Positions 1-14,288 of a DNA stretch of 59,409 nt are shown here, one piece after another (positions within the stretch are counted from its first letter, which is position 1; every line of letters begins with the position of its first letter). The stretch comes from Myxococcales bacterium LLY-WYZ-16_1. Its GTDB lineage: Bacteria; Myxococcota; Kuafuiibacteriia; Kuafuiibacteriales; Kuafuiibacteriaceae. The notes under the pieces were generated by a model, which was not told the origin of the DNA, made no database searches, and worked only from the letters and a program-made list of their open reading frames with translations. Made by a program: the position numbers and the translations under genes. Location: positions 1 to 59,409 of the forward strand of contig DAPKRQ010000097.1 in NCBI GenBank assembly GCA_031800475.1, given 5' to 3'.

Positions 1-1
1 G

Positions 2-2272
2 TTCGCGCTGCTTCAGGTGTTCGGGGGACCGGCGGGTCTCGAAGCGTGGACCGCAGCCCATCCAGAGGCGCTGGAGGGCCTGGTCGAACCGGCTCGCCGG
101 GGCTCTTGGGCGAGCTTCACCCTACTGGCTTTCGCGGCGGCCTTCTTGCTCCCGCGCCAGTTTCACATGGCCTTCGTCAAGCAGCCCGAAGAGCAGGCCC
201 TTTTGCACGCCATGTGGGCCTTCCCCGTGCTTTTGTGGGTCCTGAACCTTCCGATCCCCTTGATCCTGTGGGCCGCCCGGAAGCTCGACCTTCCGGGCGA
301 CCCAGATTTTTGGGTTTTGGGACTGGTGGCAGAGCATCCGGCCCTGGCCGTGGTCGTGTTTTTGGGAGGACTGGCCGCCGCCAGTGGGATGGCGATCGTG
401 TGCAGCCTGGCCTTGGCCGGCATGGCCATGAACCACTTGGTCCTGCCGGTCTGGCGGCCCGTTCGTCGGGTCTACGGCACCGTGGCGTGGCTCAGACGCG
501 GCCTGGTGGCCGCGTTCGTGTTCGCGGGCTACTTCACCTGTCGAAACCTCCACGGCGGCGTCCTGGTCGAGTTGGGGCTGATCACCTTTGTCGCCGTGGC
601 GCAGTTCCTGCCCGGGATGGTCGGCGTCCTGTTTTGGACGGGCGCGACCCGCACCGGGTTCGTGGCGGGGCTGACCGCAGGCATCGTAAGTTGGACCGTC
701 CTGTTGATCCTCCCCTTGGCCGGTTGGCCCGAACCCGAAATCTGGCTCCGCGGTACGCTGGTACCGGCGGTCTTTCCGCCCGGTGTCGATCGATGGGCCT
801 TCGCGACCCAGATCAGCCTGTTCGCAAATGGGTTGTCTTTCGTGAGCCTGTCGCTGTTGGGACGGCCCCGGGCCCAAGAACTCGAAGCCGCCCAGACCTG
901 CGCCGAAGACGGTCTGACCGCCACCTTTCGGGGGCGTCGCAGCCCCGAGGCCCTCCGCCGAGATCTGGAGCGAGTGCTCGGGGCCGAGGTATCCGGTCGA
1001 GAGGTGGCTCGGGCGTGCCAGGCTCTCGGACTGGCTCGAGACGAACGCCGAGCGTTGAAGCTGGCGCAGCTGGAAGATCGGGTCGAGGTCAACCTGTCCG
1101 GATTGTTCGGGCCCATGGTCGCCCGGCAGTTGATGGGCCGCAAAGGCCCCGGCAGCCCTTCCCAGCTGGCGGACCAGGTCCAGTTCTTGGAGGAGCGAGA
1201 GCGGTCTCGCCCCCGGACCGGCACCCCGGGCCACGCGGATGCGGCCGACCTGGTGCGGCGATTCTTCGGCGGCGTTCTCGAAGACCTGCCTCTCGGGGTC
1301 TGCGCGGTGGCGTCCACGGGCGAGGTGCTGGTGTGGAACCAGGTCATGGTGCGGATCTCGGGCCTCGACCGGGCCCGCTGCGTCGGTCATCGGGTGGACC
1401 ACCTGACTCCACCTTGGCCCAGTTTGCTCACCCGCGATGCGGCAGGCCTCGAGCGATCGATTCGAACGAATGGGCGAGATCGAATCCTTCGAGTCGGTGC
1501 TTCGGTTCTGGGCGAGGGGGGCTTCGTGGCGCTGGTGGACGACCTGACCGATCAGCGTCTGGTCGAAGCGCGCCTGGCCCATCAAGATCGTCTGGAGTCC
1601 ATCGGGCGACTGGCCGCTGGCGTGGCCCACGAGATTGGAAACCCGCTGGCCGGTATGCTGATGGTCGCACGAAACCTGCAACGGGAGCGCGAACGGGACG
1701 AAGTGGCCGAACGACTCGACCTGGTGATCGCGGAGGGCACCCGCATTCAAAAGATCGTGGAGTCGATGGTGGCCTTCAGCCGGTCGGAGGGCAGGAGCCC
1801 AGAATGTCTTTCGTCCGCGGATTCGAGGCGGGTGGAGCTGCTCCAGGTGCTGCAAGGTGCCGTCCGCTTGGTCCGATTGACCCACAGAGACGTGCAGTGT
1901 CATCTGCGGTGCCCCGGCGGGGTCGCGGTACGGGGAGACGACCAGCAGCTGACGCAGGTGTTCGTCAATCTGCTCGGCAACGCCTGCGACGCCTCCCCCG
2001 CCGGAGCCGAGGTGGAAGTGGAGACGACGGTGGATCGGACGAACGTGCACGTGGCGGTATCGGATCGGGGAGAAGGCATTCGGCAGCAGATCAAGGAGCA
2101 CATCTTCGAGCCCTTTTTCACCACGAAGGAACCGGGGCGCGGCACCGGTCTGGGCTTGGCCATCGCCCATCGGATCGTCGCCGACCACGGCGGTCGGATC
2201 GAGGTGGCCGATAGGGACGGAGGTGGTACCCGGTTCGTCGTGGAGCTCGAAGCGCTGGAGATGGTGTCTTGA
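2..2272 (+). CDS. cbrA: CbrA-like sensor kinase: SLC5/SSS membrane domain + STAC + PAS + HisKA/HATPase (5' end truncated by the window edge)
   Basis: Frame is open back to position 2. Multi-TM N-terminus (LLPRQFHM, QFLPG..G.LFW), STAC-like segment (LERVLGAE...NLSGLFGP), PAS (LPLGVCAV), H-box AHEIGNPL, N-box QVFVNLLGNA, G-boxes DRGEG and GTGLGL. Confidence 0.88.
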   Translation, partial: FALLQVFGGPAGLEAWTAAHPEALEGLVEPARRGSWASFTLLAFAAAFLLPRQFHMAFVKQPEEQALLHAMWAFPVLLWVLNLPIPLILWAARKLDLPGDPDFWVLGLVAEHPALAVVVFLGGLAAASGMAIVCSLALAGMAMNHLVLPVWRPVRRVYGTVAWLRRGLVAAFVFAGYFTCRNLHGGVLVELGLITFVAVAQFLPGMVGVLFWTGATRTGFVAGLTAGIVSWTVLLILPLAGWPEPEIWLRGTLVPAVFPPGVDRWAFATQISLFANGLSFVSLSLLGRPRAQELEAAQTCAEDGLTATFRGRRSPEALRRDLERVLGAEVSGREVARACQALGLARDERRALKLAQLEDRVEVNLSGLFGPMVARQLMGRKGPGSPSQLADQVQFLEERERSRPRTGTPGHADAADLVRRFFGGVLEDLPLGVCAVASTGEVLVWNQVMVRISGLDRARCVGHRVDHLTPPWPSLLTRDAAGLERSIRTNGRDRILRVGASVLGEGGFVALVDDLTDQRLVEARLAHQDRLESIGRLAAGVAHEIGNPLAGMLMVARNLQRERERDEVAERLDLVIAEGTRIQKIVESMVAFSRSEGRSPECLSSADSRRVELLQVLQGAVRLVRLTHRDVQCHLRCPGGVAVRGDDQQLTQVFVNLLGNACDASPAGAEVEVETTVDRTNVHVAVSDRGEGIRQQIKEHIFEPFFTTKEPGRGTGLGLAIAHRIVADHGGRIEVADRDGGGTRFVVELEALEMVS

Positions 2273-3606
2273 GTCGAATCTTGTTGGTAGAAGACGAGTC
2301 CGTGCTCCGGGGCGAGATCAAGCGGTCTTTGATCCGTGCGGGGCACGACGTGGACGAAGCCGTGAGCCTGGGCGAGGACCGGGCGTTCCAGTTGTCGGAT
2401 TTCGAACTGGTGCTTACCGACGTGCGTCTGCCGGGAGGCAGCGGCGTAGAGCTGCTCGAAGCCGCGGGTCACGTGCCGGTGCTCCTGATGACCAGCTTCG
2501 GGACCGTGAAGTCGGCGGTGGACGCCATGAAGCAGGGGGCCGCCGATTACATTGCAAAGCCCTTCGAGCCGGACGAACTGGAGCTCGCCGTTCACCGCAT
2601 TCTTCGAGAGCAGCAGCTTCGGCGTAAGGCTCGAGGACTGAAGCGCGACGTTTCCCAGGTGTGGGCCATCGAAGGGATCGTCGGAACCTGCAAGGCCATG
2701 CAGGGGGTCCTGCACAGAATCGAGCGGGTGGCCTGCACCGACGCCACCGTCTTGATCCTCGGCGAGTCCGGAACGGGAAAGGAGCTGGTGGCCCGGGCGA
2801 TCCACGAGGGGAGTCGTCGCAAAGAAGGCCCTTTCGTGGCGGTGAACTGCGCGGCGATTCCGGACAACCTGATCGAGAGCGAGTTGTTCGGCCACGAAAA
2901 GGGCGCGTTCACCGGGGCGGTCCACCGTCACATCGGCCTGGTGGAGTCAGCCCACGAGGGCACTTTGTTCTTGGACGAGGTCGGGGAGCTTCCGGCGTCA
3001 GCGCAAGCCCGTTTACTTCGGGTGCTGCAAGAGCAGGAGATCCGGCACGTGGGATCCAGCAAGACCCGACAGGTCGACGTGCGCGTGCTGGCCGCGACCC
3101 ACCGAGACCTGCCCCAGATGGTGGCCCGCGGGACGTTCCGGGAGGATCTGTTCTATCGCCTCAAAGTGGTCGACGTGCGGGTGCCGGCGTTGCGGGAGCG
3201 GGCGGACGACATCCCGGAGCTGGCCACATTCCTGCTTCGAAAGGCGGGCGCCAAGGTCGGTCGTTCGGGTCTGGAGCTGACCGAAGAAGCCCTCGATGCC
3301 ATGCTCGCACACCGCTGGCCCGGGAACGTGCGGGAACTCGAAAACGCCATCGAGCGGGCGGTGATCCTGAGCGAAGACGGCCAGATCACGCCGGAGCTGC
3401 TGGGCATCGAGATCGAGACCCTGCACGTGGTCCGAGAGCCGGAATCGGACGAAGGCGCGCTGGCGGAGTATTTTCGCCATTTCGTTCTGAAGCACCAGTC
3501 GCATCTGAGCGAGACAGAGATCGCCCGGCGGCTCGGCATCAGTCGCAAGGCATTGTGGGAGCGCCGCCGTCGCTACGGTATGGTGCGCCCCAAGAACAAG
3601 GGCTGA
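2269..3606 (+). CDS. cbrB: CbrB-like sigma54-dependent response regulator (REC-AAA+-HTH)
   Basis: TTG start overlaps the cbrA stop (TTGA) with GGAG upstream. REC LTDVRLPG, Walker A GESGTGKE, intact GAFTGA, WPGNVRELEN. C-terminus YFRHFVLKHQSHLSETEIARRLGISRKALWERR matches the distinctive CbrB HTH as I recall it. Confidence 0.9.
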   Translation: MSRILLVEDESVLRGEIKRSLIRAGHDVDEAVSLGEDRAFQLSDFELVLTDVRLPGGSGVELLEAAGHVPVLLMTSFGTVKSAVDAMKQGAADYIAKPFEPDELELAVHRILREQQLRRKARGLKRDVSQVWAIEGIVGTCKAMQGVLHRIERVACTDATVLILGESGTGKELVARAIHEGSRRKEGPFVAVNCAAIPDNLIESELFGHEKGAFTGAVHRHIGLVESAHEGTLFLDEVGELPASAQARLLRVLQEQEIRHVGSSKTRQVDVRVLAATHRDLPQMVARGTFREDLFYRLKVVDVRVPALRERADDIPELATFLLRKAGAKVGRSGLELTEEALDAMLAHRWPGNVRELENAIERAVILSEDGQITPELLGIEIETLHVVREPESDEGALAEYFRHFVLKHQSHLSETEIARRLGISRKALWERRRRYGMVRPKNKG

Positions 3607-3609
3607 GCC

Positions 3610-5508
3610 GTGTCCGATTCCATGTTCGAAACCCTGGTCGAGCGCATTTCGACCCATGCACCCTTCGACCGGGCCGACCCGAGCGTGGTGCGGGCTGTCG
3701 TCGACGGCCTGCGCATCCGATACGTGGAAGCCGGAGACGTGCTCTTTCGAGAGGGCGAGCCCCACGCTCCAGAATGCTACCTGGTTCACAAGGGTCGGGT
3801 GCGGATCGGTCGAAACCACGACGGCATCGACGAGCTGGTGGACGTTTGCGACGAAGGCGACTACTTCGGTGCCCGGGCGCTTTTGAACGAGAGGCCCTAC
3901 GCTGCGTCGGCCCGGGCCGAAGAGGACACCTTGCTCTACGTCATCCCCGGAAAGCCGTTGCGCTGGGGCATGGCGCAAGACGACGCGGTCTCGGCGTTCT
4001 TCACGGCGGGCTTTACGTCCGATCTGCCGATGCTCGGCGACAACCGGCTCGAGCAGGTGAACCAAGCACTACAGCGGCTTCGGGGGGCTGCAGCACCCGA
4101 GCTGGTGGCTCGGGTCGAGCCCAGCCGGGATCCGGTGGCCTGCGCTTCGAACATCTCGATCCAGCAGGCCGCCTGGCGCATGCGAAGTCGGAACGTCGGG
4201 TCGATCGTGGTGGTCGATGCCAACGGGTGCCCGGTCGGCATCGTCACCGACTCGGATCTTCGTTCGAAGGTCGTGGCCGAAGGGCGGTCCGGAGCGGAGC
4301 CCATCGAGAGCATCATGAGCCAGCCCGTGGTGACCGTGTCCGAGAAAGTGTCCGAGGCTCAGCTGATGGCCCTGATGATGCGGCACGGGCTTCACCACTT
4401 TGCCGTGACCGAAGACGGCAGCCCCGCATCTCGGCTCGTCGGGGTGCTGTCGGAGCACGACCTCTCGAAAGCCCGGGGGCAGCACCCCACGGTGATCCTC
4501 CACGAGATCCAGCGGGCCCGTTCGGGGGAGGAGCTTCGGCTGTGGCGCGACCGAACCGAAGCGCTCTTGCGCAAATACCTGGAAGCCGAAACCGCCATGA
4601 GCCTGGTGGCGCGGGTGGTCTCTGAGATCAACGATGCTCTGATCCGCAGGAGCATCGAGCTCGCCCAAGCCGAGATCGGCCCAGCTCCAGCCCCCTGGTG
4701 TTGGCTCGCCATGGGCAGCGAGGGCCGAGAGGAACAGCTTCTTCGCACCGACCAAGACAATGCGATCTCCTTTCGCGGCTGCGAAGGCGATCGGGCGTAC
4801 TTTCTCGAGCTCGGTACCCGGGTCGTGGAGCACCTGGTCGAAGCAGGCTTTCGCCGGTGTCCGGGCGACGTCATGGCCAGCAACCCGGAATGGAATCTAG
4901 CCCTCGACGAGTGGAAGGACCGTTTCGAGCGGTGGATTTCCATGCCCGATCCGCCGGCTACCATGCGGGCGAACATCTGCTTCGACTTTCGTCCGGTGGC
5001 GGGCGACTTGGAGCTGGCGCGGGAGCTGAAGTCGTTCGTGATGGATGCGGTCAAAGCCGACCGAGGCTTCTTGGCGTTCTTCGCTAGGAACGCCGCCGAC
5101 AGTCCGCCTCCTTTGAGTTTCTTCCGAAACGAGATCGTTGAAAAGAGCGGTGAGCACCGATCGACCTTCGACATCAAGGCCCGGGCCATGACCCCTTTGG
5201 CCGACGCGGCGCGGGTCCTGGTCTACGACGCGGGAATCGACATGTTCGGAAGTACCGTGGACCGCTGGGAGCAGATTGCTCGAAAGGAGCCCAACCTGGA
5301 GCGACTGTCTCGTGAGGCGGCGATGGCATACGAGATCCTGATGCGGGTGCGCGCCCGGGAGGGTCTGCATCGCGGCAGCTCCGGCCGTTATGTCCATATT
5401 CGCGAGCTGAACAAGCTCCAACGCAGAACCCTCCGGAGCACGTTTTCCGTCGTGGAAGACGTTCAGCTGATGCTGCGGTCCCGGTATCGACTCGACATGA
5501 TGCGGTGA
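3610..5508 (+). CDS. cNMP-binding-like + CBS pair + GlnD/GlnE-like nucleotidyltransferase (DUF294/DUF294_C)
   Basis: N-terminal Crp-like beta-barrel, tandem CBS (NVGSIVVVD, GIVTDSDLR, MMRHGLHHFAV), NTase signature MGSEGREEQLLRTDQDNA, WNLALDEWKDRFERWI, FDFRPVAGD. Confidence 0.9.
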   Translation: MSDSMFETLVERISTHAPFDRADPSVVRAVVDGLRIRYVEAGDVLFREGEPHAPECYLVHKGRVRIGRNHDGIDELVDVCDEGDYFGARALLNERPYAASARAEEDTLLYVIPGKPLRWGMAQDDAVSAFFTAGFTSDLPMLGDNRLEQVNQALQRLRGAAAPELVARVEPSRDPVACASNISIQQAAWRMRSRNVGSIVVVDANGCPVGIVTDSDLRSKVVAEGRSGAEPIESIMSQPVVTVSEKVSEAQLMALMMRHGLHHFAVTEDGSPASRLVGVLSEHDLSKARGQHPTVILHEIQRARSGEELRLWRDRTEALLRKYLEAETAMSLVARVVSEINDALIRRSIELAQAEIGPAPAPWCWLAMGSEGREEQLLRTDQDNAISFRGCEGDRAYFLELGTRVVEHLVEAGFRRCPGDVMASNPEWNLALDEWKDRFERWISMPDPPATMRANICFDFRPVAGDLELARELKSFVMDAVKADRGFLAFFARNAADSPPPLSFFRNEIVEKSGEHRSTFDIKARAMTPLADAARVLVYDAGIDMFGSTVDRWEQIARKEPNLERLSREAAMAYEILMRVRAREGLHRGSSGRYVHIRELNKLQRRTLRSTFSVVEDVQLMLRSRYRLDMMR

Positions 5509-6179
5509 AGATCCCCTGGCTTACAAAGGCCCGTCCGGAGTGGCCCGAACCTCTTCGTCGCTATGCCGAGGCGTTCCATTATCCTTCGAAGCGAGCGTCG
5601 CTGGAGTCGACGCGATTCGTCGTGTTCGACACGGAAACGACGGGCCTCGATCTTGCGAAGAATCGGCTGCTCGCCCTGGCCTCGGTGGGGCTGGAGAGAG
5701 GCGACATCGTGTGTGGCGACCGCTTCGAGGTCTGGGTGCGGCAGGACACGGTGGGCGCGGCCGACGCGGTGCGGATCCACGGGTTGGTGCGGCGAGACGT
5801 GGCTCAGGGCCTGGAAGAAGATCTCGCGGTGGCGCAGTTTCTGGAGCACGCCAATTCCGCGGTGTTGGTGGCTCACCACGCGGCCTTCGACATGGCCATG
5901 TTGAAGAAGGCATTGGCGCCTCACCGGGGGGCCAAGGTGAAAAACCCGGTGGTCGACACCATGACTTTGGCTTTGCGCCTCGAGTCGGGACCGGTGCGCA
6001 CGGAGCTGTCGCGCAGCCGGATCGGGCTCGATGCGTTGGCAGACTCGTGTGGGGTGGGGATCAGCGGCCGGCACACGGCCGCCGGCGACGCCCTGGCCAC
6101 GGCTCGGGTCTTTCAGGTCTTGCTGCGGCGGGCCCGAAAGCGGGGGATCCGAACCCTCGGGCAACTGCTCGGCGGGTGA
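5505..6179 (+). CDS. DEDDh 3'-5' exonuclease-fold protein (DnaQ-like)
   Basis: ExoI FDTETTGLD, ExoII AHHAAFD, ExoIII RHTAAGDA; GTGA overlap with the DUF294 gene stop. Confidence 0.9.
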   Translation: MKIPWLTKARPEWPEPLRRYAEAFHYPSKRASLESTRFVVFDTETTGLDLAKNRLLALASVGLERGDIVCGDRFEVWVRQDTVGAADAVRIHGLVRRDVAQGLEEDLAVAQFLEHANSAVLVAHHAAFDMAMLKKALAPHRGAKVKNPVVDTMTLALRLESGPVRTELSRSRIGLDALADSCGVGISGRHTAAGDALATARVFQVLLRRARKRGIRTLGQLLGG

Positions 6180-6245
6180 CGGAGCCCGGCGGTCGTCCGG
6201 CTCCGAGGGAATGGACGGCCCGGGTCGCTAGCTCGGTACCTCGAT

Positions 6246-7574
6246 TCAGAAGTACACCATGGCCTGCAGGATGCCTTCGCTCGCGAAGCCGTCCATGTCG
6301 CCGGGGGCCAAGAAGATCGGTCGGGCTCGGTAGTGCAGCGTGAGCTTGGCGTGGTGCCCGATCAGCAGCCAGTTCACGCCACCTTCCAGCATCGGCGACA
6401 GCTCGTCGTTCAAAGCCTCGAAGAACGACAGCTGAGTCCGGAAGTAGGGTTGCAGGCTCACGCCGCCCAAGGGCTCCGTCGGCAGAAGGTAGCCGACCTC
6501 GAGCACCAAGCTGGTGCCGGTGCCGATGACCGGGTACCCGTTTCCGCGGCCATTGACCGCGGAGCCGCTGCCGGTGTCGCCGATGTTGGAGATGCCGATG
6601 TTTCGCAGAAAGTTCGGCCCAAAGTCGAAGTAGTAGAACGTGAACAACGCCGTGAGGGCCCCGCCGGTCTCCACCGAACCCAGTGGGCTGTCGAAGAACA
6701 CGTCGGCCCCGAACAAGAAGATGTCCGACGGGACCCGATCTCCGCCCGTGGCGCTGGCGCGGGCGGTGCCGTTGGGCTGGTAGTAGTAGCCCGCGCCGAT
6801 GTTGAACACCTTCTTGGTGCCCAGATACGAGCCCACGGTATACGGAAGGAGGTTGCCCTCGTTTTCGAGGAACTCCCACTTGAAGTAGCCCGCGGTGGAC
6901 CAGGTGTTGGCGTTGTTGTTGAAGACTGCCTGATCGGGGCTCGCCGGGTCGGCGTTGCGGGTTTCGAACGGCCGGTTCAGCGCGACCCGGTAGTCCAGGT
7001 CGAGGATCTTGCCCTTGGCGTAGACGCCGAGCTGGCGAGCGAACTGATCGTTTCCTTCGATCAGGGGCCAGTTGATGATCGGAGCGTCGATGGTGAGAAA
7101 GTTCAGCGTGCTTCCGTTCGTTTGACGCGAAATTCCGTGCCAGTAGTGGATACCTGAACCCACCGAAAGGAATTCGTCCAAGACATCGTACTCCACCCAG
7201 GCGTCGTGGAAGAACAGCTGGGGCTTGAAGGGGTCCCCCTGCTGAATCCGGAAAGTCTGGTTGTTGATACCCATGTGTAGCAAGATCAGCACGTCGTCGG
7301 TGATCTGGCCGTATGCGATGAGCCGGGCCCTGCGGAGCGCCACGTCGGCTTCGACGTCCGACGGATTTCCGTCCACGGTCGTGCCCGGATTCATCTCCAT
7401 GACCCGGGTCCACATCTGGAGCCAGGAGATGAAGCGCATGTAGCGTGTGCCCTCTTCGTTGAAGTCGATGCGCGCACCCTTGCCGTACAACTCGCCTCCG
7501 CCTTGGGCCTGGGCCGTCGAAGCCGACGCGAACAGTGCGGCCGCGAGTGCGACCGTGAGCATGTCTTTATTCAT
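6246..7574 (-). CDS. Outer-membrane beta-barrel porin (possibly OprO/OprP-like fold)
   Basis: Sec signal (ASTAQA|Q), amphipathic strands, RRARL motif, terminal Phe (MVYF), GGAGG RBS; directly downstream of the symporter on the same strand. Confidence 0.75.
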   Translation of the reverse strand: MNKDMLTVALAAALFASASTAQAQGGGELYGKGARIDFNEEGTRYMRFISWLQMWTRVMEMNPGTTVDGNPSDVEADVALRRARLIAYGQITDDVLILLHMGINNQTFRIQQGDPFKPQLFFHDAWVEYDVLDEFLSVGSGIHYWHGISRQTNGSTLNFLTIDAPIINWPLIEGNDQFARQLGVYAKGKILDLDYRVALNRPFETRNADPASPDQAVFNNNANTWSTAGYFKWEFLENEGNLLPYTVGSYLGTKKVFNIGAGYYYQPNGTARASATGGDRVPSDIFLFGADVFFDSPLGSVETGGALTALFTFYYFDFGPNFLRNIGISNIGDTGSGSAVNGRGNGYPVIGTGTSLVLEVGYLLPTEPLGGVSLQPYFRTQLSFFEALNDELSPMLEGGVNWLLIGHHAKLTLHYRARPIFLAPGDMDGFASEGILQAMVYF

Positions 7575-7639
7575 TGTTTCCTCCCGAGTTGGCGGGACGC
7601 CCTCGCCGAAGGGCAGAGGCGAGCGCGCCCGTTCGTTCG

Positions 7640-9478
7640 TCAGTGTGCTGCGGAAGCCTGCTTCGATCCCTTGGGGACGCGAATGTCTTCGACCAGATTC
7701 TGGATGTCTTCGGGCGGAGCCGGCGTGAATCTCGAAACGCCGATGGCCAGAATCGCGTTGAGCAGCATGCCGAATGTTCCGATACCCTCCGGCGAGATGC
7801 CGAACCAGTACTGGTCTTTGGTGCCTCCGAGGAACTTGAAATAGATGATGTAGGCGCTGGTGAACGCGATCCCGGTGACCATTCCGGTGAGGGCCCCTTC
7901 CCGGTTCATCTTCTTGTCGAAGATGCCCAAGATGATGGCCGGAAAGAAGCTGGAAGCCGCTAATCCGAAGGCGAAGGCGACCACCTGCGCCACGAAACCA
8001 GGTGGATTGATCCCGAAGTAACCCGCCACCACGACCGCCACTGCCGCGGCGATGCGGGCGGCCAACAGCTCCCCGCGCTCCGAGATGTCGGGCCTGATGG
8101 TTCGTTTGATGAGATCGTGGCTCACGGCGGTGGATACCACCAAGAGCAGTCCGGCCGCGGTGGACAGGGCAGCCGCCAGACCGCCGGCGGCGATCAGCGC
8201 GATCACCCAGGCTGGAAGGTCTGCGATCTCCGGATTGGCCAACACCATGATGTCGCGATCGATGTAGACTTCGTTGGTGTTCGACGTGGGCGGATTGCTC
8301 ACCTTGCGCTGGCCCGCCTCGCCGCGAACCACGCTGCCATCGTCGGCGGTCACGAAGGAAGGTTTACCTTCGAACGGGGCGCCGGAGCCGTCGTACCGGA
8401 CCCGGCCGTCGTCGTTTTTGTCCAGCCAGGCGATGAGCCCGGTGCCCTCCCAGGTCTTGAACCAGCCCGGGATCGTGTTCTCGCCTGCGGACGCAGCCGT
8501 CGCATCATACTTGGCGTCGCGGATGTCCTCGATCAGGTTGGTTCGGGCGAAAGCGGCTACCGCCGGCGCGGTCGTGTACAGAATCGCGATGAACAACAGG
8601 GCCCAGCCCGCGCTTATCCGCGCGTCTCGAACCTTTGGCACCGTGTAGAACCGAATGATCACGTGAGGGAGCCCTGCGGTACCGACCATCAGGGCCATGG
8701 TGATGAAGATGACGTCGATCATCGGTTTGGAGCCGGATGTGTATTCGGCAAAACCGAGCTCCCGGTGCAACTGGTTCAGCTTCTCGAGCAGATGAACGTT
8801 CTCGCCCGAAGCGATCTTTTCACCCACCTCACCGGCCAGGACCCCGCCGAAGCCGAGCTGCGGGATCGGGTTGTTGGTGAGCAGAATCGAGATGAAGATC
8901 GCTGGAAGCATGTAGGCGAAGATCAGGATCACGTACTGCGCCACCTGGGTGTACGTGATGCCCTTCATGCCGCCGAGGACTGCGTAGGAGAACACGATCA
9001 CCATGCCGATCACCACGCCGGTGTTGATGTCGACTTCGAGAAAGCGGCTGAATACCACGCCCACGCCGCGCATCTGGCCGGCCACGTAGGTGAACGATAC
9101 GAAGATGGCGCAGACGACGGCGATCAATCGTCCTGCGCTGGAGTAATAGCGATCCCCGACGAAGTCCGGGACCGTGAACTTCCCGAACTTTCGAAGGTAG
9201 GGCGCGAGCAGCAGGGCCAGGAGCACATAACCACCCGTCCAGCCCATGAGATAGACAGAGCCGTCGTACCCGATGAACGAGATGATTCCGGCCATGCTGA
9301 TGAAAGAGGCTGCCGACATCCAGTCGGCCGCGGTGGCCATGCCGTTGGCTACTGGGTGCACACCCCCGCCGGCCACGTAGAATTCGCCCGTGGAGCCCGC
9401 TCGGGACCAGACCGCGATGCCGATGTACAGGGCGAACGAAAGACCGACGATGATGATCGTCCACAGCTGAACGGACAT
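7640..9478 (-). CDS. actP: Sodium:solute symporter, ActP-like / VC_2705 subfamily (cation:acetate symporter)
   Basis: ANGMATAADWMSAASFISMAG, GWTGGYVLLA, FTVPDFVGDRY, MVGTAGLPHVIIRFYTVP, GGLAAALSTAAGLL, AQVVAFAFGLAASSFFP. Confidence 0.9.
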   Translation of the reverse strand: MSVQLWTIIIVGLSFALYIGIAVWSRAGSTGEFYVAGGGVHPVANGMATAADWMSAASFISMAGIISFIGYDGSVYLMGWTGGYVLLALLLAPYLRKFGKFTVPDFVGDRYYSSAGRLIAVVCAIFVSFTYVAGQMRGVGVVFSRFLEVDINTGVVIGMVIVFSYAVLGGMKGITYTQVAQYVILIFAYMLPAIFISILLTNNPIPQLGFGGVLAGEVGEKIASGENVHLLEKLNQLHRELGFAEYTSGSKPMIDVIFITMALMVGTAGLPHVIIRFYTVPKVRDARISAGWALLFIAILYTTAPAVAAFARTNLIEDIRDAKYDATAASAGENTIPGWFKTWEGTGLIAWLDKNDDGRVRYDGSGAPFEGKPSFVTADDGSVVRGEAGQRKVSNPPTSNTNEVYIDRDIMVLANPEIADLPAWVIALIAAGGLAAALSTAAGLLLVVSTAVSHDLIKRTIRPDISERGELLAARIAAAVAVVVAGYFGINPPGFVAQVVAFAFGLAASSFFPAIILGIFDKKMNREGALTGMVTGIAFTSAYIIYFKFLGGTKDQYWFGISPEGIGTFGMLLNAILAIGVSRFTPAPPEDIQNLVEDIRVPKGSKQASAAH

Positions 9479-9487
9479 GTGTGCTCC

Positions 9488-9745
9488 TCAGTCTTCGGCC
9501 AGCCCGTGCTTCTTGTCGAGCTGGTTCATGAGCCGGACGTACACGAAGATCAGAATGACGAAGACGTAGATGGCTCCTTGTTGTGAGAACCAAAAGCCCA
9601 GCGGAAAGCCGCCGATGTGGATGTTGTTGAGGGGCCCGGCCAGCAAGATGCCGAAGCCGTAGGAGACGACGAACCAGATCGAAAGCAGGGCGATCAGGAT
9701 CCGCAGGTTGGCGCGCCAGTATTGGATTCGAGATGCGTCGGACAT
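9488..9745 (-). CDS. Putative symporter small subunit (DUF4212/DUF485 type), 85 aa
   Basis: C-terminal part of ORF 9488..10639: MSDASRIQYWRANLRIL...GGFPLGFWFSQQGAIYVFVILIFVY..LDKKHG. Two TM segments; GAGGAAGG RBS. Confidence 0.9.
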   Translation of the reverse strand: MSDASRIQYWRANLRILIALLSIWFVVSYGFGILLAGPLNNIHIGGFPLGFWFSQQGAIYVFVILIFVYVRLMNQLDKKHGLAED

Positions 9746-9770
9746 GGTCCCTTCCTCGGCCGTGACACAG

Positions 9771-9786
9771 AGCAAAGAGCGGACCA
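9771..9786 (-). promoter_or_regulatory. Sigma54 (-24/-12) promoter for the small subunit-symporter-porin operon
   Basis: Minus strand reads TGGTCCGCTCTTTGCT versus consensus TGGCACG-N4-TTGCW, with exact GG/GC spacing. Predicted +1 near 9760 gives a 15-nt leader containing the RBS. Confidence 0.7.
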
Positions 9787-9851
9787 ACCTTGCAAGAGCC
9801 TTGGGCGAACTTCTTTCGGTTTCAACGCAACGCGTTGGAGCGTGGGCCTGC

Positions 9852-9879
9852 GTAACAGGCAACGTTACCGATGGTGACA
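9852..9879. promoter_or_regulatory. Candidate upstream activator site: three CbrB-type hexamers
   Basis: GTAACA (9852), CGTTAC (9863) and GTGACA (9874) start exactly 11 bp apart. They match or are one base off TGTTAC/GTAACA and sit midway between two sigma54 promoters. Confidence 0.6.
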
Positions 9880-9942
9880 GGTCCCGAGAGGCAAGGTCAC
9901 TTGCCCGAAATTCGGCGGCGCAGCCCGCCGGCCAACGCGGTT

Positions 9943-9958
9943 TGGCGCATGGCTTGCT
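9943..9958 (+). promoter_or_regulatory. Sigma54 (-24/-12) promoter for the prpE-like gene
   Basis: TGGCGCATGGCTTGCT with exact GG-N10-GC spacing; predicted +1 near 9969. Confidence 0.72.
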
Positions 9959-9970
9959 TCCACCGCCCTC

Positions 9971-11848
9971 ATGGGGTTCGAAGCAGTCTACCGGCGGTCG
10001 ATCGAAACGCCCGAAGCGTTCTGGGCCGAGGCAGCCCGGGCCATCGACTGGGATCGTCCGTGGGATCGGGTCCTGGATGGGGACCGGGCGCCCTTTTATC
10101 GCTGGTTCGCCGGGGCCCGAGTCAACACCTGCTTCAATGCGGTCGACCGGCACGTGGAGGCGGGTCACGGCGAGCAGGTGGCTTTGGTGTACGACAGCCC
10201 GGTCACCGGCACCGTCCAGCGCTACACCTTCGCGGAGCTGCAAGACCGGGTGGCGCGGTGCGCGGGCGTTCTGTCGGAGCTCGGCGTTCGCAAGGGCGAC
10301 CGGGTGATTCTCTACATGCCGATGGTGCCGGAGGCCGTGGTCGGCATGCTGGCTTGCGCCCGACTGGGTGCGATCCACTCGGTAGTATTCGGTGGATTCG
10401 CTTCGGTGGAGCTCGCTAAGCGGATCGACGACGCTCAGCCCAAAGTGATCCTCTCGGCTTCCTGTGGAATCGAGCCAGCCCGTCAGGTTCTCTACAAGCC
10501 GCTGCTGGACGCGGCCATCTCCGCGAGCCGCCATCCGCCCGAGCGCTGCCTGATTCTCCAACGTCCCGAAGCCCCATGCGACCTTCAGGAAGGCCGGGAT
10601 CTCGACTGGCAGAAGGCCGAGCGACGTGCCGAGCCCCACCCCTGCGTCCCCGTGGATGCGACCGATCCTCTATATATTCTGTATACTTCTGGCACCACGG
10701 GGGACCCAAAGGGCATCGTCCGAGACAACGGGGGACACGCCGTGGCCTTGGCTTGGAGCATGAAGCACATCTACGGGGTCGACCCGGGTGAGGTCTTCTG
10801 GGCCGCCTCCGACGTGGGCTGGGTCGTCGGACATTCCTACATCGTGTATGGCCCTTTGCTGCATCGGGCCACGACCGTCTTGTACGAAGGCAAGCCCGTG
10901 GGAACGCCAGATGCGGGCGCGTTCTGGCGGGTGATACAGGACCACCGGGTGAACGTCTTCTTCACCGCTCCCACGGCGTTTCGAGCGATCAAGCAGCGAG
11001 ACCCCGAAGGCGAGCTGGTGGCGGCCTACGACACTTCGTCCCTGCGGAGCCTCTTTTTGGCGGGCGAGCGATGCGATCCCGATACCCTGGAATGGGCCGG
11101 ACGGATCCTCGACGTACCGGTGATCGACCATTGGTGGCAGACCGAGACCGGCTGGCCCGTGGCCGCCAACTGCTTGGGGATCGAGGCCCTCGCGGTGAAG
11201 CCAGGCTCCCCGACCCGGGCCGTGCCCGGGTGGGACGTGCAAGTGGTCGACCCCGACAGCCGGCCGGTCCCGCCCAAGACCATCGGCAACATCGTCTTGA
11301 AGCTTCCGCTTCCTCCGGGGGCTCTGCCGACCCTGTGGAACGCCGAGGAGCGCTTTCGCTCGGTATACCTCGAAGAGTTCCCGGGCTTTTACAAGACCGC
11401 GGACGCTGGCTACCTGGACGAAGACGGGTACCTGTTCGTCATGTCCCGCACCGACGACGTGATCAACGTGGCGGGCCACCGGCTTTCGACCGGGGCCATG
11501 GAAGAAGTCCTGGCTGGACACCCGGCGGTGGCGGAGTGCGCGGTCATCGGGGTGAAGGATGAACTCAAGGGCCAGCGCCCGGTGGCCCTGCTGGTCCTGA
11601 AAGCGGGGGTGAGCACGCCCCAGGAACAGGTCGAGGCGGAGGCGGTGCAGCGGGTTCGGGAGGCCATCGGGCCCGTGGCCGCCCTGAAGAACGTGCACGT
11701 GGTCGAGCGCCTTCCAAAGACCCGGTCGGGCAAGATCCTGCGCCGGACCCTCCGGCAGATCGCCGACGGCGACCGTTTCGAGACCCCCGCCACCCTGGAC
11801 GACCCAGCGATCCTGGACGCCATCGCTCAGCGGCTCGGCGCGCGCTGA
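9971..11848 (+). CDS. prpE: Propionyl-/acetyl-CoA synthetase (PrpE/ACSS3-like)
   Basis: YILYTSGTTGDPKG, FWAASDVGWVVGHSY, DHWWQTETG, GHRLSTGAMEE, and acetylation-site motif LPKTRSGKILRR. Confidence 0.9.
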   Translation: MGFEAVYRRSIETPEAFWAEAARAIDWDRPWDRVLDGDRAPFYRWFAGARVNTCFNAVDRHVEAGHGEQVALVYDSPVTGTVQRYTFAELQDRVARCAGVLSELGVRKGDRVILYMPMVPEAVVGMLACARLGAIHSVVFGGFASVELAKRIDDAQPKVILSASCGIEPARQVLYKPLLDAAISASRHPPERCLILQRPEAPCDLQEGRDLDWQKAERRAEPHPCVPVDATDPLYILYTSGTTGDPKGIVRDNGGHAVALAWSMKHIYGVDPGEVFWAASDVGWVVGHSYIVYGPLLHRATTVLYEGKPVGTPDAGAFWRVIQDHRVNVFFTAPTAFRAIKQRDPEGELVAAYDTSSLRSLFLAGERCDPDTLEWAGRILDVPVIDHWWQTETGWPVAANCLGIEALAVKPGSPTRAVPGWDVQVVDPDSRPVPPKTIGNIVLKLPLPPGALPTLWNAEERFRSVYLEEFPGFYKTADAGYLDEDGYLFVMSRTDDVINVAGHRLSTGAMEEVLAGHPAVAECAVIGVKDELKGQRPVALLVLKAGVSTPQEQVEAEAVQRVREAIGPVAALKNVHVVERLPKTRSGKILRRTLRQIADGDRFETPATLDDPAILDAIAQRLGAR

Positions 11849-11861
11849 GCGAGACCCGGCT

Positions 11862-13733
11862 TCAGGCCGAGTCCGCCCGCTCTTCGTTGCTGCACAGGGC
11901 GTCCAGATCCTCCCGGTCCAGGGTCTCCTTTTCGAGCAGCGTAGAGGTCATGGCGTCGAGGACTTTTCGACGGGACTGGAGGATCTCGCGAGCCTGACTC
12001 ACCCCCGCCTGCAAGATGTTCGACACCTCCAGGTCGATCTCCCGAGCCCGGTGATCGCTGAAGTTCCGTTCTTCCGAAAAGCTCACCGGGGTGTCCAAGA
12101 AGCGGAGCCCGGCGGGCTTGCCAAAGGTCTGGGCTCCAAGTCGCTCGCTCATGCCGAAGCGGCACACCATCTGGCGTGCGGTTTCGGTGGCCCGCTCCAG
12201 ATCGTTCTGTGCCCCGGTGGACACCTCTTCGAACACCAGTTCCTCGGCCACCCGGCCCCCCATCATCACCGCGATCCGGTCGGCGAGCTCTCCGCGCGTC
12301 ATCAGGTGACGGTCTTCCGTGGGCAGCTGCAAGGTGACACCAAGGGCACCGATGGTGCGGGGAATGATGCTGACCCGGTGCACCGGGTCGGCGTGCTCGC
12401 TGCCCATGGCTACCAGGGCGTGTCCCGATTCATGCACGGCGATCCGCTCCAACTCGGTCTGGTTCATGGCCCGATTTCGCTTCTTTAGACCGAGCTGGAT
12501 CCGGTCGACCGCTTCTTCGAAGTCCGCCTGCTCCACCCTCTCCGAACCCCGGCGGGCGGCGGCCAGGGCGGCTTCGTTGACGACCCGGGCCATGTCGGCC
12601 CCCACCATGCCCGGGGTCCGTTTCGCGACCAGCTCCAGATCGACCTGGTCGGACAGCGCGATCTTCTTGGCGTGGACCTTCAAAATGGCATGCCGCGCCT
12701 GGACGTCGGGCCGGTCCACCACCACCTGCCGATCGAAGCGGCCGGCACGGGTCAGGGCGGCGTCGAGCATCTCGGGTCGGTTCGTGGCGGCCATGATCAC
12801 CACCTGGGAATCGCTTTCGAAGCCGTCGAGCTCGGCCAGCAGCTGGTTCAGGGTCTGTTCCCGCTCGTCGTTGGTGCCCATGGCGCCGAGTCCGCCCCGC
12901 GACCGGCCGATGGCGTCGATCTCGTCGATGAACACGATGCAGGGCGCCCGTTCCTTCGCCTGTTTGAACAGGTCGCGGACTCGGGCCGCCCCCACGCCCA
13001 CGAACATCTCGACGAACGAGGAGGCGGTGATCGAAAAGAAGGGGGTGCCCGCTTCACCGGCCACCGCCCGGGCGAGTAGGGTCTTGCCGGTGCCCGGGGG
13101 GCCTACCAGCAGCACACCCCGGGGGATCTGGGCGCCGAGTTGCTGGTAACGTCCGGGCGACCGAAGAAAGTCCACCACCTCCGTCAACTCGCCCTTCGCC
13201 TCGTCCACGCCAGCCACGTCGTCAAAGCCCACCCGAATCTGAGCCGACTCATCGTACAGCTTGGCCTTGTTCCGCCCGAAGGACATGGGGCTCGCGCTTC
13301 CGGGCCCGCCTCCGGCTCCGCCCCGCAGCCCTCGGCCGATCAGGAGGGTTGGCAGCATGATCAGGGCCAAGGGGATCAACCAGAACAGCAACAGCCACCA
13401 CGGCTCGCTTTCGGGCCTGCCCGAGTAGGTCACGTCCCGCGTCTCGAGTTCTTCGATCAACGCGTCCGGGTCGAAGCCGGGCACCCGCTGGGCCGACCAT
13501 GTTTCGGTCTTTGCATCGCCGTCGCTGCCGGTCCCTTCTTCGGGGACGACCTTTGCTTCCACCGCTGCCGCGCCGATCCACACTTCGCGCACCCGGTCGT
13601 CTTCCAGGGCGGTCACGAGTTCGCTGTAGGGCACCGTTCGTTTCGTGGGACCGAACGCGTTTTGCAGGGCGTAAGCCAGGGCCAGGCCGCCGAGCAAGAG
13701 CAGAAGGAGGGACCAGGTTCGTCCGCGGAGCAT
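11862..13733 (-). CDS. ftsH: ATP-dependent zinc metalloprotease FtsH
   Basis: Two TM segments, FDDVAGVDEAK, Walker A GPPGTGKT, Walker B IVFIDEID, SRH ALTRAGRFDR, HESGH, GAQNDLERAT. Confidence 0.95.
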   Translation of the reverse strand: MLRGRTWSLLLLLLGGLALAYALQNAFGPTKRTVPYSELVTALEDDRVREVWIGAAAVEAKVVPEEGTGSDGDAKTETWSAQRVPGFDPDALIEELETRDVTYSGRPESEPWWLLLFWLIPLALIMLPTLLIGRGLRGGAGGGPGSASPMSFGRNKAKLYDESAQIRVGFDDVAGVDEAKGELTEVVDFLRSPGRYQQLGAQIPRGVLLVGPPGTGKTLLARAVAGEAGTPFFSITASSFVEMFVGVGAARVRDLFKQAKERAPCIVFIDEIDAIGRSRGGLGAMGTNDEREQTLNQLLAELDGFESDSQVVIMAATNRPEMLDAALTRAGRFDRQVVVDRPDVQARHAILKVHAKKIALSDQVDLELVAKRTPGMVGADMARVVNEAALAAARRGSERVEQADFEEAVDRIQLGLKKRNRAMNQTELERIAVHESGHALVAMGSEHADPVHRVSIIPRTIGALGVTLQLPTEDRHLMTRGELADRIAVMMGGRVAEELVFEEVSTGAQNDLERATETARQMVCRFGMSERLGAQTFGKPAGLRFLDTPVSFSEERNFSDHRAREIDLEVSNILQAGVSQAREILQSRRKVLDAMTSTLLEKETLDREDLDALCSNEERADSA

Positions 13734-13763
13734 GCCGAATCCGAGATCCTCCCGGACTTCGGG

Positions 13764-14288
13764 TCAAGACGAGGACGGCACCACGTGGGCCAGCAGCTTC
13801 TCGGTCAGCTCCGGGACCGACTGAAGGTCGGTTCGAAGGGTCAGCTCGGGATTCTCCGGTGCTTCGTAGGGGGCGTCGATGCCGGGCAGGTTCCGCACTG
13901 TCCCCTGGGCCGCGGCCGCGTACAGACCCTTCGGGTCTCGGCTTCTCAGCACCGATTCATCGGTCCGCAACAAGACTTCGACGAAGCGTGGGACCCGCTC
14001 GCGCACTCGGTCGCGATGACGGCGGTACGGCGCGGTGGCGCTCACCACCACGATGGCGCCCCCTTCGCTGCAAACGACCGCCAGCTCTTGGACGACCTGG
14101 TAGAGCCACTCCCGCTCTTCGGCGGTGTAGGAGGGCTCGGGAGTCAAGAAGGTCCGAAGCCGATCGGAGTCCAGATGCACCGTCGCCAGGTCCCGGCGGT
14201 GCAGGGCGCCCAACAGGGCTTCGGCCAAGGTGGTCTTTCCGGTGGCGGGTCTTCCGGTGAACCACACCACGGTTCCGAAGGGGGTCAC
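13764..14288 (-). CDS. Adenylylsulfate-kinase-like P-loop kinase (CysC family), 174 aa
   Basis: GTG start overlaps the upstream stop (GTGA). WFTGRPATGKTT, LDSD, RDPKGLY, LPGIDAPYEAPENPEL. Confidence 0.82.
   Translation of the reverse strand: MTPFGTVVWFTGRPATGKTTLAEALLGALHRRDLATVHLDSDRLRTFLTPEPSYTAEEREWLYQVVQELAVVCSEGGAIVVVSATAPYRRHRDRVRERVPRFVEVLLRTDESVLRSRDPKGLYAAAAQGTVRNLPGIDAPYEAPENPELTLRTDLQSVPELTEKLLAHVVPSSS

Follow-up and report, generated by a model that had tools for sequence, protein, structure and literature searches.

Organization of the gene pair

We analysed a window of 59,409 nucleotides from Myxococcales bacterium LLY-WYZ-16_1 (contig DAPKRQ010000097.1, positions 1 to 59,409), in which two overlapping genes encode a sensor-containing DUF294 nucleotidyltransferase (NTase; P0001) and a DEDDh-type exonuclease (P0002). 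The two genes are a myxobacterial copy of a known module, consisting of a COG2905-type NTase and a DnaQ-like DEDDh protein, of which Pseudomonas PP_0354/PP_0353 is the studied example. As set out below, two proteins that oppose each other, with an output bearing on the uptake or activation of monocarboxylates, account best for the data.

The pair forms the distal half of a four-gene operon, the first two genes of which encode a sensor histidine kinase and a sigma-54-dependent response regulator (Table 1). Open reading frame calls place all four genes co-directionally on the forward strand between positions 17 and 6179, with hardly any spacing. The stop codon of the kinase gene overlaps the start of the regulator gene by 4 nt (2269-2272). 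The NTase gene ends in ATG CGG TGA and the exonuclease gene starts with the GTG at 5505, giving the 4-nt GTGA overlap noticed in an earlier reading made from the letters alone (hereafter the sequence-only reading). A scan of bases 1-14000 for sigma-70 promoters found no promoter-like site. The hairpin behind the exonuclease gene is likely to be the end of both convergent transcripts. The closest relatives are found in metagenome-assembled genomes of Polyangiales and Myxococcales, at 55-63% identity.

Table 1. Genes, protein domains and putative regulatory elements at the locus.
Feature	Position	Strand	Evidence or remark
Membrane sensor histidine kinase (multi-transmembrane N-terminus, PAS, HisKA, HATPase)	17-2272	+	Pfam/NCBIfam; first gene of the operon
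NtrC/AtoC-type sigma-54-dependent response regulator (REC, AAA+ sigma-54 activator, HTH_8)	2269-3606	+	Sigma54_activat E 7.5e-74
Sensor DUF294 NTase P0001, 632 amino acids	3610-5508	+	Starts 3 nt past the regulator stop
cNMP-binding-like domain of P0001, residues 37-122; degenerate phosphate-binding cassette (FGARALL...PYAAS)	3718-3975	+	Pfam cNMP_binding E 4.5e-20
CBS pair of P0001, residues ~168-290	4111-4479	+	Pfam CBS x2 E 1.1e-21
DUF294 (PF03445) NTase core of P0001, residues 315-448	4552-4953	+	Pfam E 8.9e-48
NTase catalytic motif GSEGREEQLLRTDQDN	4714-4761	+	Residues 369-384
DUF294_C (PF10335) helical "substrate-binding" domain of P0001, residues 486-626	5065-5487	+	Pfam E 3.1e-28; KNTase_C/HEPN-like clan
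DEDDh (DnaQ/PolC-exo-like) 3'-5' exonuclease P0002, 224 amino acids	5505-6179	+	RNase_T/PF00929 match
GC-rich hairpin GGAGCCCGG / CCGGCTCC	6181-6204		Seen by inspection of the letters; separates the exonuclease gene from the porin gene convergent with it
Outer-membrane porin-like protein	6246-7574	-	No hit in Pfam, weak match to an ExtI-type model; final gene of the operon that contains the symporter
VC_2705-family sodium:solute symporter, large subunit	7640-9478	-	TIGR03648 848.6 bits (cut-off 320.75)
DUF4212 symporter small subunit, 85 amino acids, two transmembrane segments, N-terminal YW[KRQ]xN	9488-9745	-	PF13937 122 bits
Putative sigma-54 -24/-12 element TGGTCCGCTCTTTGC	9772-9786	-	27 nt upstream of the small-subunit ATG
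Putative sigma-54 -24/-12 element TGGCGCATGGCTTGC	9943-9957	+	14 nt upstream of the ligase ATG
PrpE/Acs-like short-chain acyl-CoA ligase, divergent from the symporter operon	9971-11848	+	PrpE 752.8 bits (cut-off 955); Acs 652.9 bits (cut-off 657)

Domains and motifs of the NTase

P0001 carries two kinds of sensor domain in front of its catalytic core and C-terminal helical domain, which match their models with 162.1 bits (PF03445, cut-off 21) and 98.9 bits (PF10335, cut-off 22.5), respectively. The same four-domain architecture is common to the 120 NTase homologues listed, two fragments excepted. The catalytic motif reads GSEGREEQ...TDQDN (G369-S370-E-G-R-E-E-Q, followed by T380-D381-Q-D383-N384) and has the form typical of Pol-beta NTases, in which G[SG]-x9-13-D-x-D is joined by a third carboxylate. 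Its residues G369, S370, D381 and D383, together with the third acid D459, are invariant in 60/60 homologues of 41-63% identity; the family has 60 invariant residues. The intact GS...DxD signature described in the sequence-only reading thus stands, as does the statement that the enzyme lacks an HD eraser domain: Pfam found no HD domain in P0001, and on the catalytic half its models for HD, GlnD_UR_UTase and GlnE gave nothing with the threshold relaxed to E <= 10.

The same reading had placed cNMP-like and CBS sensors in front of the NTase. Both domains were found, but cNMP sensing is doubtful. When aligned to the cyclic-nucleotide domains of PKA and PKG, the binding cassette (3856-3909, residues 83-100) reads FG-A-RALL...P-Y-AAS against the canonical FG-E-xALL...P-R-xA[TS]. 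Across the family the position of the Glu is taken by A, V or I and that of the Arg by an invariant Tyr, Y97; R89 of the cassette is also invariant. Because both canonical contacts are replaced family-wide, canonical binding of cAMP or cGMP is doubtful, and this domain probably does not accept either of the two as its ligand in the usual mode. The CBS pair keeps the ribose-binding motif G-h-h-T-x-x-D (G210, T213, D216), which is of the kind expected for adenosyl ligands.

Structural class of the NTase

A PDB sequence search with P0001 and a profile search with its catalytic half gave no match for the NTase part; a fold search was the only informative comparison with the PDB. AlphaFold models were obtained for the NTase part only (residues 296-632; predicted local distance difference test (pLDDT) 88.5, predicted template modelling score 0.88) and for the full-length protein (pLDDT 85). 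With the NTase-only model Foldseek returned just four PDB chains at E <= 1e-3, all of them protein AMPylators: DrrA-Rab8a (6yx5_B, template modelling (TM) score 0.66/0.66), the GlnE N-terminal domain (1v4a, 0.67/0.54) and two chains of the GlnE C-terminal adenylylation domain (3k7d, 0.68/0.48). The full-length model yielded the same two families, DrrA and GlnE, for the catalytic part. Kanamycin NTase, RNA uridylyltransferases, HalB, FAM46 and DncV trailed at E 0.1-2 and TM 0.12-0.33.

A phylum-wide genome search also gave weak matches to PF03445 in frames of about 900-1000 amino acids, one of which is a bona fide GlnD (GlnD_UR_UTase, HD and ACT domains). On this true GlnD, PF03445 is the best NTase-core model, with 31.7 bits against 19.6 for NTP_transf_2 and 17.5 for GlnE. 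The label "GlnD/GlnE-type" given to P0001 in the sequence-only reading is thus supported at the level of predicted fold and of profiles. P0001 is nevertheless a structural relative only, outside the GlnD and GlnE families, because it has neither their helical-domain models (PF08335/PF03710) nor their reversal domains.

These comparisons bear on the idea that the pair is a nucleotide-signal or nucleic-acid-end system, in which an energy-responsive NTase makes a short oligonucleotide or puts untemplated nucleotides on RNA or DNA 3' ends and the exonuclease degrades the product. The two would then be synthase and degradase of a messenger, or a pair for tailing and trimming. NTases of the Pol-beta fold include oligoadenylate, cyclic-oligonucleotide and oligo-dA (HalB) synthases, the sequence class of P0002 is that of nucleic-acid exonucleases, and breakdown of dinucleotide messengers by DEDDh enzymes, Orn among them, is established. 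The fold search, however, gave DrrA and GlnE only, with HalB, DncV, TUTase and FAM46 at TM 0.12-0.32 and E > 0.4; GlnD, which uridylylates a protein, is also matched by the DUF294 profile; and no gene for a messenger receptor or effector is conserved beside the pair. We regard such a system as improbable.

A further feature of the catalytic half is the stretch NPPPLSFFR (5098-5127, residues 497-506), which is nearly invariant across phyla and adjoins the sole low-confidence part of this half (pLDDT < 50 at residues 502-512 in both AlphaFold models). The loop could be a lid, a partner-docking site or a site of self-modification.

The DEDDh exonuclease

P0002 matches RNase_T/PF00929 with E 1.4e-20 and 74.9 bits (cut-off 24). 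All five DEDDh residues reported earlier are in place (D42, E44, D129, H190 and D195), each being at least 97% conserved among 76 orthologues. Its best PDB sequence matches are PolC (E 4.4e-15), the epsilon subunit of DNA polymerase III (~3e-6) and Cas2-DEDDh (3e-6). None of the NCBIfam equivalog models reaches its cut-off on the protein, the highest score being that of PRK09145 (NF006601) with 112.8 bits against 189; the DNA polymerase III epsilon models reach 60-62 bits against cut-offs of 196-223. P0002 also has a conserved N-terminal extension of ~35 residues.

Members of the exonuclease family are nearly always stand-alone proteins of ~230 amino acids. Among the best 150 representatives there is one long protein, a PAS-exonuclease fusion that has no NTase. 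This protein, P0254 (692 amino acids), has its PAS domain at residues 131-250 and RNase_T at 501-657, so the exonuclease partner can carry a sensor of its own.

Conservation of the pair and its partners

One genome per species was scanned with an alignment of 12 homologues, which gave 492 relatives; the best 80 loci were kept and span Myxococcota, Chlorobiota, Bacteroidota, Planctomycetota (Isosphaeraceae) and Leptospiraceae. At E <= 1e-10 there are more than 1,200 homologues, spread over at least five phyla. The exonuclease gene lies directly downstream of the NTase gene, on the same strand, at 76 of the 80 loci (75 by tblastn with the window proteins; at the 76th the gene begins and is followed by a masked stretch). 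The distance from NTase stop to exonuclease start is -8 to +10 nt in 68/75 loci, with an overlap in 44/75, where the start codon nearest the NTase stop was taken, a choice that biases toward small gaps.

These figures speak to a further alternative, namely that the two proteins have no joint function and that the exonuclease, a DnaQ-like paralogue with a general part in repair or proofreading, only shares an operon with a signalling NTase. The features of P0002 are generic for the DnaQ family, as this would have it. On the other hand, the genes are adjacent at 76/80 loci across phyla, with frames that mostly overlap or abut whatever the neighbours, and the phenotypes reported for them (see below) are specific to carbon sources. 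A chance association of this kind is very hard to credit.

To compare partners, 51 fully flanked loci (at least 8 kb on each side) were used. The exonuclease was present at 48, the symporter at 29, an Acs/PrpE-like ligase at 24, a related kinase at 20 and a sigma-54 regulator at only 5. Unrelated genes surround the pair in a Polyangiales contig and in a Chlorobium genome; with no transporter nearby, it persists there as a two-gene unit of its own. Within the phylum, 37 of 201 genomes contain a full-strength DUF294 gene, 25 the TIGR03648 symporter and 22 both. DUF294 is thus found in 22/25 symporter-positive and 15/176 symporter-negative genomes (odds ratio ~79, phylogeny not corrected for), and in 19 of the 22 genomes having both the two lie within ~10 kb of each other; three genomes have the symporter but no full-strength DUF294. 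The association is strong yet not obligatory: the exonuclease is the obligate partner of the NTase and the transporter a frequent one. The recurrence near acs/actP-type loci claimed in the sequence-only reading holds in these counts for DUF4212-SSS symporters and for Acs/PrpE genes.

Several loci depart from the common arrangement. In one other family of the phylum, DUF294 is present as two or three paralogues in tandem, placed after the genes for the small subunit and the symporter. Such arrays at loci L085, L088 (3533-8320) and L089 (3686-9165) are followed by a single exonuclease gene, and L082 has one NTase gene and one exonuclease gene. Nearly all tandem paralogues keep GSEGRxEQ...TDQDN; one in L085 is degenerate (TERDHG). 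Genome G072 contains the symporter and no full-length DUF294 gene; it encodes a 383-residue protein (L093, 1067-2218) with weak matches to DUF294 (42.9 bits) and DUF294_C (26.4 bits) and no sensor domains. In the Polyangiales contig in which the pair stands alone, two genes for CBS-only proteins and one for a DHH-CBS phosphoesterase lie just upstream (L090, 6853-8988), and may represent another adenylate-sensing gene set.

Open frames of 805-1361 amino acids in a sister family, taken as possible NTase-exonuclease fusions, are high-GC artefacts, the genes lying in different frames. A substitute phosphodiesterase was sought at the four loci where the exonuclease is missing, and none recurs: one such locus has a convergent PHP-domain gene (L051), and the others have P450, DAG-kinase-like and McrBC-like nuclease genes.

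Neighbouring carboxylate genes and sigma-54 elements

Downstream of the pair and convergent with it are genes for a porin-like protein and the two subunits of a symporter, followed by a divergent ligase gene. The symporter, the small subunit with its QYW motif and the PrpE/Acs-like ligase are all present as the sequence-only reading had described them. The Tyr of the YW[KRQ]xN motif occurs in 26/26 small subunits examined; judged from such conservation, it can be taken to indicate only that the motif matters. The porin-like gene is again a neighbour of the symporter in loci of Myxococcota and Chlorobiota and in some of Bacteroidota, a recurrence that suggests a dedicated outer-membrane channel for the symporter's substrate.

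In the whole window the sigma-54 pattern has 57 matches, which is not above the 51.7 expected by chance; only two putative sites, both in the 226-bp divergent intergenic region between the small-subunit and ligase genes, were retained, on account of where they lie and which way they face. Between these two elements (9831-9900) there is a palindrome, GGCAACGTTACC (9858-9869), with a second copy of AGGCAAGGTCAC 32 nt away, and there is also a 17-nt inverted repeat (9831-9847 / 9923-9939). The palindrome and repeats may be binding sites for the sigma-54 activator. The regulator encoded in the operon matches the AtoC model with 409.7 bits, under the cut-off of 714 bits. The kinase and this regulator probably drive the putative sigma-54 promoters of the symporter and prpE/acs-like genes. 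Since the pair is co-transcribed with the kinase and regulator, and since the symporter and ligase genes carry putative sigma-54 elements, this window appears to combine the transcriptional with the post-translational control of a single pathway.

The kinase gene may be truncated, its frame being open to the first base of the contig. The N-terminal 300 residues of the kinase contain at least five hydrophobic segments, and the protein could be a transporter-like (SLC5/STAC-type) kinase. Pontibacter and Algoriphagus loci with the same gene set have a counterpart of its residues 31-297 next to that set, at ~31% identity.

A possible writer/eraser switch

PP_0354/PP_0353 of P. putida (alloputida) KT2440, PA3233/PA3232 of P. 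aeruginosa and Pflu5625 of P. fluorescens are direct targets of the CrbS/R (MxtR/ErdR; CrbR/ErdR) acetate system, and nucleotidylation of protein by the NTase has already been predicted in print; a 2026 preprint repeats the proposal, with an analogy to PII. In P. putida, in-frame deletion of the NTase or the exonuclease gene has no phenotype on acetate, and either deletion lowers growth on propionate; on pyruvate, loss of the exonuclease resembles loss of the transporter, and loss of the NTase does not (PMC9927547; bioRxiv 10.64898/2026.09.07.749794). In transposon fitness assays, Price et al. found that DUF4212 is needed by its symporter, for lactate in Shewanella and D-alanine in P. stutzeri, and that, in Shewanella amazonensis as in P. 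stutzeri, an RNase T-domain gene lying near DUF4212-SSS genes shows cofitness with the transporter (bioRxiv 10.1101/072470). VC2702/VC2703 were considered as the corresponding pair of Vibrio and rejected, VC2702 being crbR. The published genetics fit the antagonistic pair on carboxylate uptake proposed in the sequence-only reading. The choice of acetate as the substrate does not: the published phenotypes concern pyruvate, propionate, lactate and D-alanine.

We suggest, with a probability of roughly 0.4, that the two proteins form a writer/eraser nucleotide switch acting on C2-C3 monocarboxylate uptake or activation. The NTase, with the catalytic architecture of DrrA, GlnE and GlnD, would move a nucleoside monophosphate (NMP) from a nucleoside triphosphate onto a hydroxyl of a protein target, its activity being set by an adenylate at the CBS pair together with whatever ligand the degenerate cNMP-like domain binds. 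The exonuclease, made in a fixed ratio from the overlapping gene, would oppose it, in the simplest case by hydrolysing the protein-O-P-nucleoside phosphodiester to free 5'-NMP, the same chemistry as at the 3' end of a nucleic acid. The modified state would turn off C2-C3 monocarboxylate uptake or activation, and candidate targets are the DUF4212-SSS transporter, the acyl-CoA ligase or both together, and alternatively a regulator of these. Loss of the eraser would then lock the target off and give a transporter-like phenotype, and loss of the writer would leave the target on and give none; this asymmetry matches the pyruvate phenotypes reported.

An effector role for the nuclease accounts for the same genetics. 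Here the nuclease would be the output and the NTase its controller, nucleotidylating or binding it, and the active nuclease would trim or degrade specific RNAs, such as transporter or metabolic mRNAs or a small RNA, a processing that the uptake system would require for its expression. The arrangement would resemble MntA/HepT. The coupling of the two genes is tight and universal, DUF294_C belongs to a KNTase_C/HEPN-related clan of NTase partner domains, and the DEDDh site is of the ordinary nucleic-acid type. A PAS sensor on the relative P0254 is what a regulated effector would be expected to have, it is loss of the exonuclease and not of the NTase that gives the transporter-like phenotype, and Price et al. 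guessed at a role of the RNase T-domain gene in symporter expression (10.1101/072470). Against this, the exonuclease family has no invariant Tyr outside its catalytic motifs, and DNA proofreading domains, rather than RNase T or Orn, are its nearer relatives in sequence. A search of bases 1-14000 with Rfam gave no RNA family or other RNA element close to the pair, and an NTase of this size with so many invariant residues is more than a mere inhibitor of a small nuclease would need. We consider this explanation unlikely, though less so than a messenger or tailing system.

Several points weigh against the writer/eraser switch. The genetic asymmetry fits a nuclease effector with an NTase inhibitor equally well. 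P0002 is by sequence nearest to the PolC/DnaQ proofreading domains and Cas2-DEDDh and has the usual motifs of the DnaQ family; because its nearest kin and motifs are of this kind, a nucleic-acid substrate is the default expectation. We know of no DEDDh enzyme that strips NMP from proteins. Four loci have the NTase without the exonuclease. A VC_2705-type symporter is missing from 22/51 fully flanked loci and from 15/37 DUF294-positive genomes, so that no single neighbouring target explains the family; the many pair-bearing genomes that lack the symporter speak for a broader target, or for more than one. Orthology with PP_0354/PP_0353 is presumed from the published descriptions, in which architecture and gene order are identical to those here. 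The literature search gave no biochemistry for either activity of the pair. The earlier statement that no function is known has to be qualified: knock-out phenotypes and the printed nucleotidylation proposal exist for the matching Pseudomonas pair.

That the DEDDh protein is an eraser, as the sequence-only reading proposed, is pure inference, and the protein groups by sequence with PolC/DnaQ proofreading exonucleases; the idea is absent from the papers found. The symporter or its small subunit does not hold up as a general target, many pair-bearing genomes and loci having neither. A further reading, judged less likely than not, is that the DEDDh protein is the first protein de-nucleotidylase of its fold and forms, with the GlnE/DrrA-like DUF294 enzyme, a multi-phylum counterpart of the GlnD/PII nitrogen switch for carbon and energy status. 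Such a switch would reversibly NMPylate one element of the uptake or activation of monocarboxylates, be it the transporter (DUF4212-SSS), the acyl-CoA ligase or the regulator of these.

Were the writer/eraser switch to prove correct, a very widespread bacterial module would represent a new post-translational control on the uptake and activation of short-chain carboxylates (acetate, propionate, pyruvate, lactate), and a new class of enzyme would exist for removing protein-bound nucleotides. To what was known, this window adds a myxobacterial case of the pair sharing a transcript with its sigma-54 two-component system. It also adds a fold-level ranking that puts protein AMPylators far above other classes of NTase, and counts that identify the exonuclease, not the transporter, as the obligate partner.

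Comparison with known systems

GlnE, GlnD and the Legionella effector DrrA/SidM share with P0001 an NTase core followed by a helical domain (TM ~0.66 to DrrA and GlnE) and the motif G-S-x10-D-x-D, and sensor-controlled nucleotidyl transfer is a further likeness of P0001 to this group. Unlike GlnD, which has an HD domain, and GlnE, which has a second NTase domain, P0001 has no second catalytic domain for reversal. It also has no ACT domains, its sensors being the CBS pair and the degenerate cNMP-like domain, and it is too dissimilar in sequence for PDB sequence or profile searches to reach any of these enzymes. P0002 shares the DEDDh fold and the five catalytic residues with DnaQ (the epsilon subunit), the PolC proofreading domain and Cas2-DEDDh. 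In contrast to these, it stands alone at 224 amino acids and is always partnered with an NTase, not with polymerase or Cas proteins.

MntA/HepT likewise consists of NTase and nuclease genes in a tightly coupled operon, and the C-terminal domain of the NTase described here belongs to the same Pfam clan as HEPN. MntA/HepT provides the precedent for an NTase that AMPylates a partner RNase. Its partner, however, is a HEPN RNase (Rx4-6H), whereas the partner here is of the RNase_T/DEDDh type; MntA is a minimal MNT protein, whereas P0001 is a large sensor protein of the GlnE/DrrA type; and its context is defence or mobile elements, whereas the context here is metabolic.

The closest likeness is to the Pseudomonas pairs. 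PP_0354/PP_0353, PA3233/PA3232 and Pflu5625 have, by the descriptions in the papers, the same order of a cNMP-like domain, two CBS domains and an NTase followed within one operon by an RNase_T-type exonuclease, and both the Pseudomonas pair and this one are tied to acs/actP-type carboxylate genes and to a dedicated two-component system. The present pair differs in coming from a metagenome-assembled genome of a myxobacterium. Its transporter is a DUF4212/VC_2705-type symporter with a porin, where Pseudomonas has YjcH-ActP. Control of the CrbR/ErdR type was not found, no search for a CrbR motif having been made: the regulator of the same operon is NtrC/AtoC-type, and the nearby elements are of the sigma-54 type. 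The Pseudomonas pair is under a CrbR-type regulator encoded elsewhere, whereas the pair in this window lies inside the operon of its NtrC/AtoC-type regulator. The module itself is known and biochemically uncharacterised; what is new here is a variant wiring, in which a sigma-54 regulator of the same operon takes the place of CrbR control.

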